DNA from: Chloroflexota bacterium
Lineage (GTDB): Bacteria > Chloroflexota > Anaerolineae > Anaerolineales > Anaerolineaceae
Assembly: GCA_004347695.1 (NCBI GenBank)
Contig: SLTK01000009.1
Span: 194,328 to 258,327, forward strand
DNA: 64,000 bases
Direction: 5' to 3'
Position numbers and translations under genes: made by a program. Below, piece by piece: positions 29,248-35,387 of the stretch. The notes below the pieces were generated by a model that saw only the letters and a list, made by a program, of their open reading frames with translations, ran no database searches and had not been told where the DNA came from. Each line of letters opens with the position of its first letter. The stretch's first letter is position 1.

Positions 29248-29730
29248 TTACGGCTCGATGGGATAACCGGCGTCCCGCCAGGCAGCAAATCCGCCTGAGA
29301 TCGCCTGGACATTAGCGAAACCGTTTTCCTGGAGGATGAGCGCCGCACCGGCGCTCGATTCTTCGGCCGGTCAGGTACAGTAGGTGATGATCCATTGATT
29401 TTTATCCAACTCGGCCATGCGGCTGCGTACCGTGCTGTAGGGGATGTTGAGTGCCCCGGAAACATGACCCGCTGAATAATATTCCGGGTCGCGCACATCC
29501 ACAAAAACCGCCGAACCGTCATCATAGGCTGCTTTGGCGTCCTGCAGTGAAATTCGCGCCACTTCCGGGAATGGAAATTCGGTAGTTGGGACAGGGTTCG
29601 TTTGCGCTGCCGGGATTTCTGGGCCAAGCACCTTGATGGTTTGCCAGATGACGACGCCCAGAATGATTACGGAGCCTAAAATCATCAGAATAATCGGAGT
29701 GGTTGGATTTTTTGGTTGTTTGCGCGCCAT
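29248..29730 (-). CDS. membrane-anchored rhodanese-like selenoprotein (UGA at 29371-29373 read as Sec120), 160 aa
   Basis: The track ORF stops at YCT-TGA. The frame continues PAEESSAGAALILQENGFANVQAISGGFAAWRDAGYPIEP-TAA, completing the rhodanese fold (VDVR, GHVSGALNIP, GGF.AW...G.P). SECIS-like hairpin follows. Confidence 0.85.
29338..29356 (-). promoter_or_regulatory. bacterial SECIS-like hairpin
   Basis: GAGCGCC-GGUGC-GGCGCUC: 7-bp stem, loop beginning GG, loop 21 nt downstream of the UGA. Confidence 0.7.
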
Positions 29731-29967: not shown

Positions 29968-30696
29968 TTACGGCACCCGGCCGATGGCGTAGAAGGTCGG
30001 CACGAAGAGGATGCGCTCACCGTGCTGCCAGGCGGCGGCGTCGATGCGGCGCAGCTCTGCAAGGCGTTCGGCGGGCAGGCTGCCGGCCAAATCGGCTTCC
30101 AGTGCCGCCCATTCCAGATCCCAACCGTCTTCCAACTGCATGGCGCTCCATTCCCCGCCCATGACGCCGCTGGTGACCTGCTGCAGCCCGGCGGCGGTGA
30201 ACAGGGCAGCCAACTTACGACCCCTATGTGGGTCTGCGCCCTGGCGCTCCAGCGCTGATCCCTGAAGCTGACCAATTTCTGCAAGCTCGGCCGGGAAGTC
30301 AATGCGCGCGCCGTAATCGGGTTCTGCCAGCGCCAGGATCATCCCGCCGGGGCGAGTGACGCGCCGCATTTCGGCCAGCACGCGGGCGGCGTTCACCCAC
30401 AGAAGAAAATAATGCGTCAGGCAGGCATCGAAGCTGGCGTCGGCATATGGCAGGGTGTCTGCGTCGGCGCGCACCAATCGGGCGCGCGGGACGGCATGCT
30501 GTGCGATCTGCAAATGCTGCCAATCCCAATCCAGGCCGTGCAGTGTTCCGGCGGGGCAATCTGTCAGCACCGCGCCGGTACCGCAGCCGGGTTCAAGGAC
30601 GCGAGCGGTCCTGGTGAGACCGGCTTTTTCGTAGAGATAGCGGCGAATCTGAGCGGTCCAGCCGGCCTGCTGGGTGTAGCGGGCGTGCCAGTCCAC
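29968..30696 (-). CDS. class I SAM-dependent methyltransferase
   Basis: VLEPGCGTG, LHGLD, ADADTLPYADASFD, LAEMRRVTRPGG. Start uncertain: GTG 30696 chosen just after the upstream stop; the ORF extends to 30750. Confidence 0.88.
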   Translation of the reverse strand: MDWHARYTQQAGWTAQIRRYLYEKAGLTRTARVLEPGCGTGAVLTDCPAGTLHGLDWDWQHLQIAQHAVPRARLVRADADTLPYADASFDACLTHYFLLWVNAARVLAEMRRVTRPGGMILALAEPDYGARIDFPAELAEIGQLQGSALERQGADPHRGRKLAALFTAAGLQQVTSGVMGGEWSAMQLEDGWDLEWAALEADLAGSLPAERLAELRRIDAAAWQHGERILFVPTFYAIGRVP

Positions 30697-30704
30697 TGGC
30701 TGGC

Positions 30705-31877
30705 CTAAACCGGGGCGACTTCGCGCGCCCGCAGCCAGATTTGCTCCCACGGGTCATTTAGTAGATTGCCAAGGATGGCGTTGGAACCCTGGCGCGGCAG
30801 TACATCGCCGTCGGGCTCGACGTACAACCAGGAACGGCCGGCGCCGGCAATGTGTTCGCCAACTTCATTCAGTTCCAGCGCTACCGGATTCAACTGCGAA
30901 TAGGGCACCGGTAGATCCCAGACCAACTCGATATGATGATGAGCGGCTAGCTCGCGGGCGGATTCAAGTTCAAGTTTGAGCGCGCCAGAAGCCTCGCTCA
31001 GGCTCAGCGAAGCGACATTTAGTTCAGCAAGGCGTTCCAGAATTGCGGGAATGTTTGATGCGTTCTGCTCTGTGACAGTAAGATGGACGGTTACGAACAG
31101 GTCCTCGGCCAGAACATCACGCAACGCCTCCCAGGATTGCTCCTCGGCGGGATTCAGCACCAACATCAGGTGATCCAGACCAGCCTGCAACACGGAGTGC
31201 AGGTATCCGGTTTCGGAGAAACGCAGGCCGTCACTGAGCACTCCGGCGACCATGCCAAGCTGTTCGGCGTGGGTGATCAATTCCACCAGGTCGGGGCGCA
31301 GGGTGGGCTCGCCGCCGGTAAAAATCACATGTGGAATGCCGGCGTTCCAGGCTTTGTCCAGGATGGTGATCCATTCTTCAGTGGTCAGGTTGCGGCGGAC
31401 GCGGTCAACCGGGGCGCTGGCAGCGTGCTCCCGGTCAGCGGTCTCGTAAGTCAGCGCGCAGTCCAGACGCAACGGCGCCATCAACTTTTGCGAATGCGGG
31501 GCTGTGCGCTCGAAATCGAGGTAGGTGGCCGGGTCAAGGTCGGGTGTTTCCACCAGCGTGGCTACCCGCTGCGAGAAATCCTGGAAGTCCTGCAATGCAT
31601 CCGAGGCAGGTACGCGGTAGCGTTTGGCAATCGCGGTCGCGACCTCGCCGGGGGGTGTCTGATGCAGTAAATGATAGGCATACTCGGTGGCGGTCTGGTT
31701 GAGGTGCAGCACGGTGGAGGCATTGACGATCAAAATGCCTTCGCCGCCTTCCTCGATGCGCAGGTGCAACCGAAAAGGCACCGGCACGTCCGGCGGCGAC
31801 TGGTAGTGGTGCACGCCAGGAGGAAGAGGCGTCTGTTGAGTGAAAAAGCGGTCCAAATAATTGCGAATTTTATCCAT
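30705..31877 (-). CDS. radical-SAM-fold protein with N-terminal PqqD/RRE-like domain, lacking CxxxCxxC and SPASM cysteines
   Basis: Paralogue of the adjacent gene (GIPHVIFTGGEPTLRPDL, AGLDH, EPDGDVLP..LGN.L.DPWEQIW). LTYETADREHAA replaces LTYRCNNNCAHC. ATG 31877 with GGAGG RBS. Confidence 0.85.
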   Translation of the reverse strand: MDKIRNYLDRFFTQQTPLPPGVHHYQSPPDVPVPFRLHLRIEEGGEGILIVNASTVLHLNQTATEYAYHLLHQTPPGEVATAIAKRYRVPASDALQDFQDFSQRVATLVETPDLDPATYLDFERTAPHSQKLMAPLRLDCALTYETADREHAASAPVDRVRRNLTTEEWITILDKAWNAGIPHVIFTGGEPTLRPDLVELITHAEQLGMVAGVLSDGLRFSETGYLHSVLQAGLDHLMLVLNPAEEQSWEALRDVLAEDLFVTVHLTVTEQNASNIPAILERLAELNVASLSLSEASGALKLELESARELAAHHHIELVWDLPVPYSQLNPVALELNEVGEHIAGAGRSWLYVEPDGDVLPRQGSNAILGNLLNDPWEQIWLRAREVAPV

Positions 31878-31915: not shown

Positions 31916-33283
31916 CTAAACCGGCGTGACTACGGTCTGTTCGGTTCGCGCCAGCGGGCAACCTCCGCCGCATTCAGCTAATAAGGCGCAGGAATTACAC
32001 TCTACGGGCAGGTTGCGGCGTTCGCGCAGGCTGAGCGCCAGCTCATGGTTCCAGATGCTTTCCCAGGGGTCAGTCAGGATGTTGCCGAGCGCGGTATAGT
32101 AGGACTGGCAGGGCAGCACCGAGCCGTCCGGTTCGATACACATGTTGTAAAGGGCGGCCGAACAACCCTTGACGCCCAGTTCCATTTGCACCGGGTCAAA
32201 ATTGCAGTACTGGGTGGGCGTGTACCAGATCAAGCGCTGAGCGGCGGAATCCGTCTTCTGGCGGGCGATATTCAGCAGCGGCGGCAAGGCGGACTCAGGC
32301 AAGCCGCTACCCACTTTCGCTCCGCGACCGGAATAGATCAGTGCATTCAACCCGACGGTCGGCACCCCTAATTCGGCCAGGAAGTCCAGCGTCTGAGATA
32401 GGAAGGGCGCGTTCGATCGCAGCAGCGTGGTATTGGTCATGACAAACAGGCGGGTTGCCAGCGCATTGCGCACACCGGCAACTGTTTCCTGCCAGGCGCC
32501 GTGCGGCGCGACCATGGCGTCATGGATGGCGGGGTCATGCGACTCGAGGGTGATTTGAACATGATCCAGGCCGGCATCCACCAGTTGCTGGACGAATGCC
32601 GGATCTTTCAGTTTGCGCCCGTTGGTATTGATGCCGGTGATCTGGCCCAGCCCTTCGGCGTGGGCGATCAGCTCGGGCAGGTCCGGCCGCAGGGTAGGCT
32701 CTCCGCCGGTGAACACGATGTGCGGGATGCCGATTTTCCACAGCAGGTCGAGGGTGCGCTTCCAGGCAACGGTATCCATCTCGGGGAAGTTGCGCGGCCG
32801 GGCATTGTAGCAGTGCGCGCAGTTGTTGTTGCAGCGGTAGGTCAGCGCCAGGTCCATGCGGTAGGGCGCGGAAGGGTGCTGCGAGAACGGCGCCAGCACT
32901 TCCAGCTCCAGGTCATGCACCGGGCAGGCGCCGTCAGGCGCGGTAAGTTCATCCAATTGCGGGATGAACTGCGCATAGTCAAGTAACGCTTCCTCGCCGG
33001 GTACTTTGAATTGACGGGTGATGGCGCGCACCGCGGTCGGCTGGGGGACTTTTTCCAGCGCCAGGTAGGCCATCAGGGCGGCGGTGGGGTTGAGGTGAAA
33101 GGCTCGGTTGGCGTTGACCAGCAGCAGCCCATGTCCATCCGCTTCCAGGCGCAAATGGATGCGGGCTTTGCCGTCGCGGTCCTCCCGGCTGTAGTGGTAA
33201 ACCCCGGATTTGGGCAGACCGGGTACTTGGGCACTTCCGCTCATAAGAAAGCGCGGGAACAGATTCGAAATGCGTTTTACCAT
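31916..33283 (-). CDS. radical SAM/SPASM enzyme with N-terminal PqqD/RRE-like domain
   Basis: CNNNCAHC, FTGGEP, NTNG; SPASM KGC...CIEPDGSVLPC...ECNSCALLAECGGGCP. N-terminal LLLVNANRAFHLNPTAA...AITRQFKVP...D is RRE-like. ATG 33283 with AAGGGA RBS; the longer track start is the alternative frame of the CA repeat. Confidence 0.92.
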   Translation of the reverse strand: MVKRISNLFPRFLMSGSAQVPGLPKSGVYHYSREDRDGKARIHLRLEADGHGLLLVNANRAFHLNPTAALMAYLALEKVPQPTAVRAITRQFKVPGEEALLDYAQFIPQLDELTAPDGACPVHDLELEVLAPFSQHPSAPYRMDLALTYRCNNNCAHCYNARPRNFPEMDTVAWKRTLDLLWKIGIPHIVFTGGEPTLRPDLPELIAHAEGLGQITGINTNGRKLKDPAFVQQLVDAGLDHVQITLESHDPAIHDAMVAPHGAWQETVAGVRNALATRLFVMTNTTLLRSNAPFLSQTLDFLAELGVPTVGLNALIYSGRGAKVGSGLPESALPPLLNIARQKTDSAAQRLIWYTPTQYCNFDPVQMELGVKGCSAALYNMCIEPDGSVLPCQSYYTALGNILTDPWESIWNHELALSLRERRNLPVECNSCALLAECGGGCPLARTEQTVVTPV

Positions 33284-33297
33284 TAACAGATTCCCTT

Positions 33298-34998
33298 TTA
33301 TCGTCCGCCGCCAGCGCAGGCGCAGGCACATCCGGCACAGGCGCAAGCACAGGCGCACGAGCGTCCGCCGCCACCTGATCCGCCGGAGCGGGTGTAGGTA
33401 GTCTTGGGTACCGGATTGGTCTTATTCGTGATGGTGTCGGTGAAGCTTGTCAAGTTGCCGACCACGCTGGCCGAGAATTCCTGAGCGCCATTGACCATCG
33501 AAGCGGCAAAATCTGAGCCCGGTAGTTTGGGCAGGTTGATCGAGCCGCCCTGACTGGTTGACGGCATGGAAGGAAGCGAGGCTGCGGCCATGCCGCCGCC
33601 ACCACCACTCGGGCGCATGGCAGGATCAAAGCGCCACCACCAGGTGGGCACGAAGACCGGCTGCGGCCCGAAGGATTGCTGGGTGCGCCCGGACCATTCC
33701 TTGTCGAGCATGGTCCATTCCATTACCTGCTCGTAGGTTTCCGATTTGACCTCAGGAGTATCCGCGGCTGTGACCTGCGCCCATGCTTTTTCCATGATTG
33801 CCGTGTAGTACGCGATCGTTTCTTTGCGGCTGAAACCTTTCATCTTTTCGGAGATCGATTTGACCAGGCCAACCGTCACGGATTGCAGTTCGCGGCGCCG
33901 GGCAGCTTTGTCTTCGGTTTCGAAGGCTTTGCAGAAATCCACCTCATACGGCTGCAGGTTTTCAGGCAGTGGACTGACGACTTCCAGTTTGAGCGGTTCG
34001 CGCGTGACAACAGTAGCTGCGCCTTTTTTGAGCACGCTAAACAGAATCATGCTCATGACTTTATCGAGCGGCTGCTCCATCAGAATGGCTGCTTCGACCG
34101 CGGTCAAACCGCGCTTGATGCCATGGCCTTCGACCGCAATTTTTGGCGGCATGTATTGTAATTTGCGCTTTTCGGCAGCTTTCGCGCCGGCAATGCCGCC
34201 CCACACAATAAAAGCGGTTATCAGGCCGAAGCAAAGGAAGGGGAAGAGGGTATCTATGGAGATGGAACGGGAGTTTGGCGTTTCGGTCGCTACGACCACT
34301 TCGGCCGGCACCAGGGCCATGGGGAAGCTAGCGCCGAATTCATAAATGGTCGATGCATCCGCGTTGTCAGCAGTCCAGGTATACACCACCCGGTTCTGAT
34401 CATCGTAACTGGATGCCGGCTCGTCCGCACCCGGCCAATTGCCGGACGGAGTATGGTAACGCGGCTGCTCCGGTTCAACACCGGGCGGCAGAATGATACT
34501 GAAGGTGTAATTGGTCTTACCGCGTACCAGGCTTGAATCGAACCAACTGGGGGTGAACACCAGACTGGCATACGGTTCGGCTTCTTCCTGTGAACCAGGA
34601 CCCAGTGCATTGCGCACCACGCCCACCTGAACGCGCAGGGTGCCGCTTTGCCCTGGTCGGATCGCATTGGATCCCAGATGGAATTCTACGCCCGGGCTGA
34701 CATATTCGGAGTCAGCAATGCGGTCAACCGGCGCGCCGTCGATGGTCGCGCTAATGCTGTATAACTCATAATCGTAATTGGGCATGCCGACATCGACAAT
34801 GTCGATCGGGTCAGCGTTGGGCTCATTGGCAAACGTGATGGCATAATCCAGACTGAGGGTTCCATCCGAATTAACAAAAACGCTGACATTTTGAACCGGA
34901 ACTTCGAAGGAGTAATTCTGCGCCAGAGCTGTCGACGGGCTAACCAGCAAAATCAGCGCGATAAGCAGCAGGAGACCACCCCGAATCCTGTGCATCAA
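33298..34998 (-). CDS. single-pass membrane protein (DUF2207-like) with C-terminal Cys-Ala repeat tail
   Basis: Signal peptide, beta-rich ectodomain, one TM helix (LFPFLCFGLITAFIVWGGIAGA), cytoplasmic domain ending RSCACACACAGCACACAGGGR. Confidence 0.88.
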   Translation of the reverse strand: MMHRIRGGLLLLIALILLVSPSTALAQNYSFEVPVQNVSVFVNSDGTLSLDYAITFANEPNADPIDIVDVGMPNYDYELYSISATIDGAPVDRIADSEYVSPGVEFHLGSNAIRPGQSGTLRVQVGVVRNALGPGSQEEAEPYASLVFTPSWFDSSLVRGKTNYTFSIILPPGVEPEQPRYHTPSGNWPGADEPASSYDDQNRVVYTWTADNADASTIYEFGASFPMALVPAEVVVATETPNSRSISIDTLFPFLCFGLITAFIVWGGIAGAKAAEKRKLQYMPPKIAVEGHGIKRGLTAVEAAILMEQPLDKVMSMILFSVLKKGAATVVTREPLKLEVVSPLPENLQPYEVDFCKAFETEDKAARRRELQSVTVGLVKSISEKMKGFSRKETIAYYTAIMEKAWAQVTAADTPEVKSETYEQVMEWTMLDKEWSGRTQQSFGPQPVFVPTWWWRFDPAMRPSGGGGGMAAASLPSMPSTSQGGSINLPKLPGSDFAASMVNGAQEFSASVVGNLTSFTDTITNKTNPVPKTTYTRSGGSGGGGRSCACACACAGCACACAGGGR

Positions 34999-35024: not shown

Positions 35025-35387
35025 TTACCACTTGGGTTCTTCGGTTAACTGGTAGGTCGAATGGCACCAGGGGCAGGTGACGACCGGCGCCCCGGCGACC
35101 ATTTTGATATCTTCGGGTTTGAGTGTGCCGCCGCACGCCACACACTTGAGCGTATCCATATTTACGTTGCCGGGAAGGTCGATATTGAGGGTTACGTTGG
35201 TGTCGGCTGCTTTGGCGGAAGACCGGCTTGCCAGGTAGATCATCACCAGCCCGACGCCGCCGATAATGATGCCAAACACAATCCAGCCAACAGAACCCTG
35301 ATCACCGGTGGATCCCCAGACGAGCAGAACACCAAATAAGACCAGGATTGACCCCACGATGTAGGCGATAATTTTTCCAGCGCGCAT
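35025..35387 (-). CDS. two-TM membrane protein with C-terminal Zn ribbon
   Basis: Two hydrophobic helices, then CVAC...CPWC; AGGAG RBS. Confidence 0.82.
   Translation of the reverse strand: MRAGKIIAYIVGSILVLFGVLLVWGSTGDQGSVGWIVFGIIIGGVGLVMIYLASRSSAKAADTNVTLNIDLPGNVNMDTLKCVACGGTLKPEDIKMVAGAPVVTCPWCHSTYQLTEEPKW

Follow-up and report, generated by a model that had tools for sequence, protein, structure and literature searches.

A conserved (Cys-Ala)n tail on a single-pass membrane protein of Anaerolineales, the probable substrate of an adjacent radical SAM/SPASM enzyme

Why does a bacterial membrane protein end in seven cysteines, each followed by an alanine? The question is raised by a locus in a 64,000-nucleotide stretch of DNA from a Chloroflexota bacterium of the Anaerolineaceae (GenBank assembly GCA_004347695.1, contig SLTK01000009.1, positions 194,328 to 258,327), here called the window. 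On its minus strand, the gene of a membrane protein closes with codons for (Cys-Ala)4-Gly-(Cys-Ala)3-Gly3-Arg, and the next gene encodes a radical S-adenosylmethionine (SAM)/SPASM enzyme with an N-terminal recognition element (RRE) of the kind used in the maturation of ribosomally synthesized peptides with post-translational modifications (RiPPs). We put at about 0.6 the probability that the cytoplasmic tail is the substrate, or 'core', of this adjacent enzyme. The modification would probably be RiPP-style, on the C-terminus of a full-size membrane protein rather than on a free peptide.

The original prediction, made from the DNA letters, recognized the Cys-Ala tail of a membrane protein and offered three options for it: a cross-linking substrate, a metal or Fe-S cluster scaffold, or a lipidation site. 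It missed the strand and the neighboring enzyme, on which the present finding turns. The enzyme context favors cross-linking, because an RRE-radical SAM-SPASM gene lies within 14 nt, because this linkage is conserved across orders, classes and a contig of archaeal origin, and because published enzymes of that architecture install Cys thioether crosslinks. Lipidation is unsupported, since no acyl- or prenyl-transferase is present in any version of the gene cassette described below.

An invariant tail on a membrane protein

The tail corresponds to the last 19 residues of the protein (548-566, CACACACAGCACACAGGGR), encoded at 33301..33357 of the minus strand and followed by a TAA codon at 33298..33300. 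Its seven cysteines, its conservation and its disorder in the structural model mark it as the presumed core segment, and SCACACACAGCACACAGGGR is the C-terminal tryptic peptide of the protein. The codons listed in the original prediction match this strand exactly, but the end given there, 33361, reaches 4 bases into the linker. That flexible Gly/Ser-rich linker (residues 532-547, 33358..33405, pLDDT (predicted local distance difference test) score <50) does precede the tail, as had been claimed, with RSGGSGGGGRS directly before it. Among homologues, the length and sequence of this S/G-rich stretch differ.

Is the repeat maintained in the protein or in the DNA? The mixed codons had been taken to mean that it is held at the protein level, and this holds well beyond the window. 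The seven Cys-Ala units are written with four different hexamers, and all that Tandem Repeats Finder detects is a weak array of period 6 (70% matches, score 33). Among 11 distinct loci, whose whole proteins are just 50-96% identical, all 19 codon positions of the tail use two to five synonymous codons, and a pair of loci differs on average in 52% of the tail codons with zero amino-acid changes. Such purely synonymous variation indicates selection at the protein level. Combined with the mixed codons and the weak array, it rules out a DNA microsatellite or an assembly artefact; the presence of the stretch in many independent metagenome runs also counts against the latter. Chance low-complexity sequence is ruled out as well, as a run of (CA)3 or longer is found at this site only in the six-frame translation of the 3.3-Mb genome (~6.6 million residues) and the motif is conserved family-wide.

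The original prediction hinged on the tail being conserved among homologues of the membrane protein, and a (CA)n tail ends 237 of 271 family sequences, invariant or nearly so down to ~31% overall identity. Fragments or frameshifted entries of <=517 aa account for 33 of the 34 sequences that lack it, and the other is a 930-aa entry. When 100 full-length representatives (clusters at 50% identity) are compared, no other 19-residue window of the protein is as conserved as the tail, where 0.915 of sequences carry the consensus residue (next best window, 0.76; protein-wide mean, 0.43). The family comprises >4,400 clusters at 90% identity in a word-indexed search and 863 clusters at 50% identity in an exhaustive HMMER search of 1.84 billion representatives. 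The best 120 of the >4,400 related clusters, which are 50-100% identical, all end in the same 19 residues, two of them with fewer CA units. The variants have CA blocks of (2-5)+(2-4) units, rarely three blocks, separated by a hinge of AG, AS, VS, DS or AN, and almost all of them finish in CACACA-GGG-R.

The open reading frame (ORF) that encodes the tail protein (33298..34998, minus strand) gives 566 aa from a TTG codon, or 565 aa from the ATG one codon further on, the form held in databases. Hydropathy predicts a signal peptide and one transmembrane (TM) helix (residues 251-269), hence a single-pass protein. Four Lys/Arg residues directly follow this helix, which places the C-terminal ~290 residues, including the tail, in the cytoplasm and thus within reach of an oxygen-sensitive Fe-S enzyme. 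An AlphaFold2 model built from 63 homologues (mean pLDDT 80) consists of a beta-sandwich ectodomain (31-226), a TM helix (248-282), a winged-helix-like/helical cytoplasmic domain (295-460) and two helices (494-527), while residues 531-566 are unstructured (pLDDT ~35). The original prediction placed all thiols on one face of a strand; the model gives the tail no such structure. A tail that is disordered, cytoplasmic and tethered fits a substrate threaded into an enzyme. The two helices belong to a conserved segment, LPxLPGSDFAAS...FT..(I/V)T..TNPxP (residues 490-531, 33406..33531, minus strand), in which 14 residues are invariant in the 63 homologues (P490, P493, G494, A498, S500, F508, G514, F519, T520, T524, T527, N528, P529 and P531). 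This segment is a candidate internal 'leader' for recognition by an RRE.

Neither Pfam nor NCBIfam assigns the tail protein to a family, and in Foldseek searches only the ectodomain finds matches (generic beta-sandwiches, domain I of M1 aminopeptidases), which are uninformative on the tail. None of the 63 Cys-Ala-tail proteins matches PF09972 (DUF2207) directly. A paralogue from another Chloroflexota genome (locus L015), 25% identical and aligning to the tail protein of the window at E 1.5e-17, does pass the DUF2207 N-terminal model (25.5 bits, cutoff 24.4), which suggests that the tail protein is a remote DUF2207-type scaffold. Some sources label its homologues DUF2207.

The tail gene and its radical SAM neighbor

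In the window, the tail gene is part of a cassette of five co-oriented genes that encode, in order, a 120-aa protein, the tail protein, the radical SAM/SPASM enzyme, a Cys-less paralogue of that enzyme and a methyltransferase. The genes overlap or are separated by gaps of 14-39 nt, which leave no room for a hidden gene for a small precursor peptide. The start codon of the enzyme gene (31916..33283, minus strand) lies 14 nt past the stop of the tail gene. From 33300 to 33283, the minus strand reads TAA, then AAGGGAATCTGTTA, then the ATG of the enzyme; the 14-nt gap includes a Shine-Dalgarno-like AAGGGA, which suggests translational coupling of substrate and enzyme. As to co-transcription, a look for RNA runs found no usable one containing the locus.

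The assignment of the enzyme draws on profile matches, alignment, a structural model and a fold search. The Radical_SAM model PF04055 matches at 90.3 bits (cutoff 29.5), with a CxxxCxxC motif at residues 152-159 whose three cysteines (C152, C156 and C159) are invariant in 44 homologues. The SPASM model PF13186 matches at 38.6 bits (cutoff 21.5) and, in the same homologues, this region holds eight conserved cysteines, of which C361, C375, C393, C430, C433, C439 and C443 are invariant and C383 is near-invariant. Ahead of the barrel, the model has strands at 28-65 and three helices at 67-114, the position of the PqqD-like RRE domain. Of 20 members of the enzyme pair, 15 match PqqD, and the enzyme of the paralogous system at L015 does so with 38 bits; many database homologues carry PF05402, and the NCBI name for some is 'PqqD family peptide modification chaperone'. 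In the fold search, the top matches over the full length are SkfB, SuiB and CteB, all maturases with an RRE. The structural matches also include anSME and the epimerase EpeE, and among proteins of solved structure PqqE is the closest in sequence. The best NCBIfam matches (NirJ2, PqqE, AhbC/D, MftC and StsB) all fall far under threshold: 121.9 bits against a curated cutoff of 500 for NirJ2 (TIGR04055), 115.2 against 381 for PqqE (TIGR02109), 85.8 against 265 for MftC (TIGR03962) and 65.8 against 625 for StsB (NF045574). By its predicted architecture, the enzyme is thus an RRE-radical SAM-SPASM maturase that lies outside any named family, that of StsB included.

How tightly are the two genes linked? 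In a sample of 401 genomes across the phylum, the tail protein occurs in 28, with one canonical full-length copy each. The carriers comprise 25 of the 35 genomes sampled from the order to which the window belongs and three from other classes. The paralogue served as query in a search of the 28 carriers and 20 related non-carriers: one or more enzyme genes adjoin the tail gene in 28 of 28 carriers, and the enzyme family was detected in just one of the 20 non-carriers (G218, described below). Where the tail gene is inherited or lost, so is the enzyme gene. The whole cassette is intact in Leptolinea, Thermanaerothrix, Bellilinea and Ornatilinea, with variable downstream flanks. Elsewhere it occurs without the Cys-less paralogue (L012), with all five genes in shuffled order and a 3+4 tail (L013), or reduced to the pair of tail protein and enzyme (L014). 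One further contig (L022/L023) encodes a 115-aa Zn-ribbon protein, a tail protein ending in CVCACHACACACACVSCACACAGGGAR and a radical SAM/SPASM enzyme, all abutting; genes for Alba and the TATA-binding protein (TBP) on the same contig indicate an archaeal origin.

A paralogous system carries a different tail. Its membrane proteins, 21 clusters in a collection of 5.8 billion proteins, end in (ACHS)n/(ACVHD)n...ACVS(K/D)F, and what both tail types have in common is an Ala-Cys unit and a Cys(i)...Ala/Asp(i+3) spacing. Its representative L015 (G015:C252, 983..5794) encodes a membrane protein of the DUF2207 type with the end (ACHS)n/(ACVHD)n...ACVSDF, its own RRE-radical SAM/SPASM enzyme directly downstream, a 390-aa coiled-coil-like protein and a 167-aa protein with TM and zinc-ribbon regions. 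Because the variant loci and the paralogous system each keep a tail protein and an RRE-radical SAM/SPASM enzyme, this pair is the invariant core of the system, and the other three genes of the cassette are lineage-specific accessories.

Among these accessories, the Cys-less paralogue (30705..31877, minus strand) is 36% identical to the enzyme. It has lost the CxxxCxxC motif and all SPASM cysteines and has kept the RRE-like N-terminus, and is a probable non-catalytic partner. The last gene (29968..30750, minus strand) encodes a class I SAM-dependent methyltransferase. The 120-aa protein (35025..35387, minus strand) has two predicted TM helices and a cytoplasmic CxxC...CxxC zinc ribbon. After the zinc ribbon it ends in an invariant YQLTEEPKW, for which the archaeal contig has FELTEEPTW; besides the tail, this is another C-terminus under strict conservation in the operon.

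What could the enzyme do to the tail?

Several Cys thioether crosslinks are the likeliest outcome, if still a tentative one that draws on analogy with characterized enzymes. The RREs of the enzyme and of its Cys-less paralogue would dock on the conserved segment 490-531, and the linker would let the tail thread into the active site. In repeated rounds there, a 5'-deoxyadenosyl radical would take a hydrogen atom from a carbon of Ala or Gly, and a Cys thiolate would close the thioether bond. If Gly9 of the tail served as a hinge, a hairpin in the register i / 18-i would pair C7-A11, C5-A13, C3-A15, C1-G17, C10-A8, C12-A6 and C14-A4, yielding a nested 'zipper' like that of StsA with up to seven thioethers. 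In this register each Cys lies opposite Ala or Gly and never opposite another Cys, so that, judging from the sequence, a thioether zipper fits better than a disulfide ladder. Alternatively, the crosslinks may form local rings from Cys(i) to Ala(i+3). The methyltransferase could add a further decoration. Once mature, the tail would remain attached to the protein and serve as a stiff element that resists proteases, or as a site of metal or redox activity.

A close chemical precedent comes from the Streptomyces sactipeptides StsA/StsB and BlaA/BlaB, where alternating core cysteines are tied to alternating small residues, an arrangement that the Cys-Ala tail resembles. StsB joins Cys2/4/6 to Gly15/13/11 in a nested hairpin (Precord et al., 2023, PMC10288494). 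It is an MftC-like radical SAM/SPASM enzyme working with an RRE, and the window enzyme matches the model of StsB at E 3e-18 and that of MftC at E 3e-24. However, StsA is a short free precursor and the RRE is on a separate protein, whereas here the core would be the C-terminus of a 566-aa membrane protein, with seven cysteines interleaved with alanines. The definition of sactipeptides and ranthipeptides, a short leader-core precursor, does not cover such a protein.

For a modified protein of full size, a near case is CrpA/CrpC of Methanococcus voltae, which like the window combines an RRE-radical SAM-SPASM enzyme with an adjacent full-size protein that has a repetitive Cys-rich C-terminal part, and whose product stays a protein. 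CrpC installs thioethers on the Cys-rich C-terminal part of the 28.8-kDa CrpA, including an ACAGM motif (Dieter et al., 2026, PMC13692751). Unlike the tail protein, CrpA is soluble, with 17-residue repeats, C-x-x-Q/D motifs, no membrane anchor and no Cys-Ala alternation, and CrpC belongs to another family (TIGR04463) of methanogen-centered distribution. The same paper cites QhpC as a protein with RiPP-like modifications (PMC13692751). In the QhpC/QhpD pair, a radical SAM/SPASM enzyme makes several Cys thioethers in a protein that is kept in the final assembly, the gamma subunit of quinohemoprotein amine dehydrogenase. As described, QhpC differs from the tail protein in being a small subunit of the periplasm that has a quinone cofactor and is linked from Cys to Asp/Glu, and the pair involves no repeat, membrane protein, paralogue or methyltransferase partner.

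Two further systems bear on individual components. TrnC and TrnD of the thuricin CD system, paralogous radical SAM proteins encoded side by side, form a tight complex that needs only one of the two radical SAM activities (Jia et al., 2025, PMC12093266), and they offer a model for the pair of active and inactive enzymes. Both, however, bind clusters and are active, with two free peptide substrates, whereas the second paralogue here has no cluster cysteine at all. On the side of the membrane protein, DUF2207 (PF09972) and TIGR04222 proteins share with the tail protein a scaffold of signal peptide, beta-sandwich ectodomain, TM helix and Gly/Ser-rich low-complexity C-terminal tail. The Cys-rich tails found on subsets of TIGR04222 proteins are proposed substrates of multinuclear non-heme iron-dependent oxidases (MNIOs) and are predicted to be periplasmic (PMC12452194), in contrast to the cytoplasmic, radical SAM-linked tail described here, and the invariant (CA)n-GGGR motif is absent from DUF2207 and TIGR04222 proteins.

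Several observations weigh against the tail as the substrate of the enzyme, or against a simple version of that reading. The number of CA units varies (2-5 plus 2-4, rarely three blocks), so that no single crosslink topology would apply to all members. By sequence, the enzyme is nearest to models of the NirJ/AhbC/AhbD/PqqE/MftC type, some of which act on tetrapyrroles and not on peptides, and its own PqqD/RRE match is below the Pfam cutoff (19.6 against 23.4 bits). One locus (L024, 6001..9602) carries two tail-protein paralogues in tandem, of which one has the canonical tail and the other ends in CVSCACACACVCVSCACACAGGGR; the 6 kb on each side contain no SPASM enzyme, which may be encoded elsewhere in the genome. 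Runs of Cys-x-Cys are classic metal ligands, the wealth of Cys and His in the tail of the paralogous family suits metal binding, and the small upstream protein has an invariant C-terminus of its own that could be a second substrate or the real one.

Is the tail, then, an unmodified metal- or Fe-S-binding element? As in metallothioneins, where C-x-C-x-C-x-C is the classic thiolate-cluster motif, its seven cysteines at i, i+2 spacing could hold Cu(I), Zn, Cd, Fe or a cluster through their thiolates, and the radical SAM enzyme would act on something else or merely obtain its metal or cluster from the tail. A metal role is likewise suspected by the authors of the CrpA study for their Cys-rich protein (PMC13692751), and TIGR04222 membrane proteins with Cys-rich tails are tied to copper-stress RiPP enzymes (PMC12452194). 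Yet the residues between cysteines vary freely in metal-binding proteins, whereas here Ala is as invariant as Cys in hundreds of clusters at 31-55% identity. The conserved cassette has no metal transporter, chaperone or sensor, no Pfam metallothionein model matches the tail protein, and the strict co-inheritance with an RRE-bearing peptide maturase would be left unexplained. We consider an unmodified metal site unlikely, if still a serious rival, and note that metal binding is compatible with modification, which could itself create the metal site. The 120-aa protein is the only other candidate substrate encoded nearby. Its YQLTEEPKW end could receive, for instance, a Glu/Lys-Trp carbon-carbon crosslink of the PqqE or SuiB type, leaving the Cys-Ala tail another role such as docking or cluster delivery. 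Conservation of a C-terminal LTEEP(K/T)W from Anaerolineales to the archaeal locus fits this idea, as do the resemblance of the enzyme to PqqE (in sequence) and SuiB (in structure) and a cassette that pairs two RRE-bearing proteins with two conserved C-termini. But the gene is absent from the pair-only locus L014, and the Zn-ribbon counterpart in the paralogous system is without the motif. The linkage that is never broken joins the tail protein and the enzyme, whose gene comes directly after the tail gene in most loci, the window included, and is still clustered with it in the shuffled L013, so that the 120-aa protein is very unlikely to be the substrate.

A different question is whether the tail could be modified by chemistry other than thioether formation. 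One may think of anSME-like oxidation of Cys to formylglycine or dehydroalanine, of epimerization, of C-methylation or of a new sulfur heterocycle built from each Ala-Cys unit. In favor of such chemistry, SPASM enzymes catalyze many reactions, anSME and EpeE are among the structural matches, the 'Ala-Cys' unit occurs in both tail types (CACA; ACHS/ACVHD) and the cassette includes a methyltransferase. The anSME motif C-x-(A/P)-x-R is absent from the tail, however, where no Cys has an Arg at +4 and the last Cys is followed by AGGGR, and characterized RRE-SPASM enzymes that act on Cys-rich cores mostly make thioethers. Such chemistry appears distinctly improbable, though less so than a switch of substrate to the 120-aa protein. 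Returning to the tail as enzyme substrate, the broadest form of this reading is a widespread modification in bacteria and archaea in which a radical SAM/SPASM enzyme turns the (Cys-Ala)n-GGGR tail into a thioether 'zipper' or another new sulfur structure, the Anaerolineales enzyme being aided by its cluster-less twin and a methyltransferase. Taken as one claim this is possible but rather doubtful. If true, the inner face of the membrane would bear an element that resembles a cofactor but is carried by a protein, perhaps a metal or redox site.

In Pfam, NCBIfam and the searchable full-text literature we found no description of such a modification, nor, in the literature, of the motif, of a Cys-Ala repeat or of DUF2207 together with radical SAM. 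What is probably new is that radical SAM maturation would act on a cytoplasmic tail, with a unique invariant core, that belongs to an integral membrane protein. To our knowledge, radical SAM/SPASM maturases are known almost solely from small secreted peptides, and whole-protein cases are few (QhpC and, in 2026, CrpA). The presumed substrate here is instead the tail of a housekeeping-looking, single-copy membrane protein. Its family is common in the Anaerolineales, anaerobic filamentous bacteria that are abundant in sediments, groundwater and anaerobic digesters, and is also present in at least one archaeon. As the 19-residue target is practically identical everywhere, the chemistry found for one member would hold family-wide. 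If the tail is modified, RiPP logic would extend to membrane proteins, a new sulfur-based structure may come to light and the cluster-less radical SAM paralogue would gain a function.

Expanded, decayed and flanking loci

Some cassettes (L017-L020), from one Anaerolineales family, contain extra genes, for a 335-aa protein, lipoproteins, a DSP-type phosphatase, a second methyltransferase and a PAS protein. The ~335-aa protein (L017 7688..8692; L018 5763..6803; L019 5173..6195; L020 6782..7795) is conserved, with a hydrophobic C-terminus and no Pfam match, and is encoded between the active enzyme and the Cys-less paralogue. The lipoproteins, one with a weak Zn-peptidase motif, the DSP-type phosphatase and the second methyltransferase are encoded ahead of the cassette methyltransferase.

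The only related non-carrier with a member of the enzyme family appears to hold a remnant of the cassette. At this locus (L016, G218:C35, 1316..3743), the Cys-less paralogue, a methyltransferase-like gene and a DSP phosphatase remain. Leucine-biosynthesis-like genes stand in place of those for the tail protein, the active enzyme and the 120-aa protein, which are missing.

Downstream of the cassette in the window lie genes for a rhodanese-like protein and a P-type ATPase. These were considered as cassette members and rejected, since other genomes have different genes there. The membrane-anchored rhodanese-like ORF (29248..29730, minus strand) has an in-frame TGA in its active-site loop (ITYCT-U-PAEES), where standard gene calling stops at 119 aa. 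The frame stays open for 40 residues beyond the TGA and ends in a normal rhodanese C-terminus, so that it probably encodes a selenoprotein.

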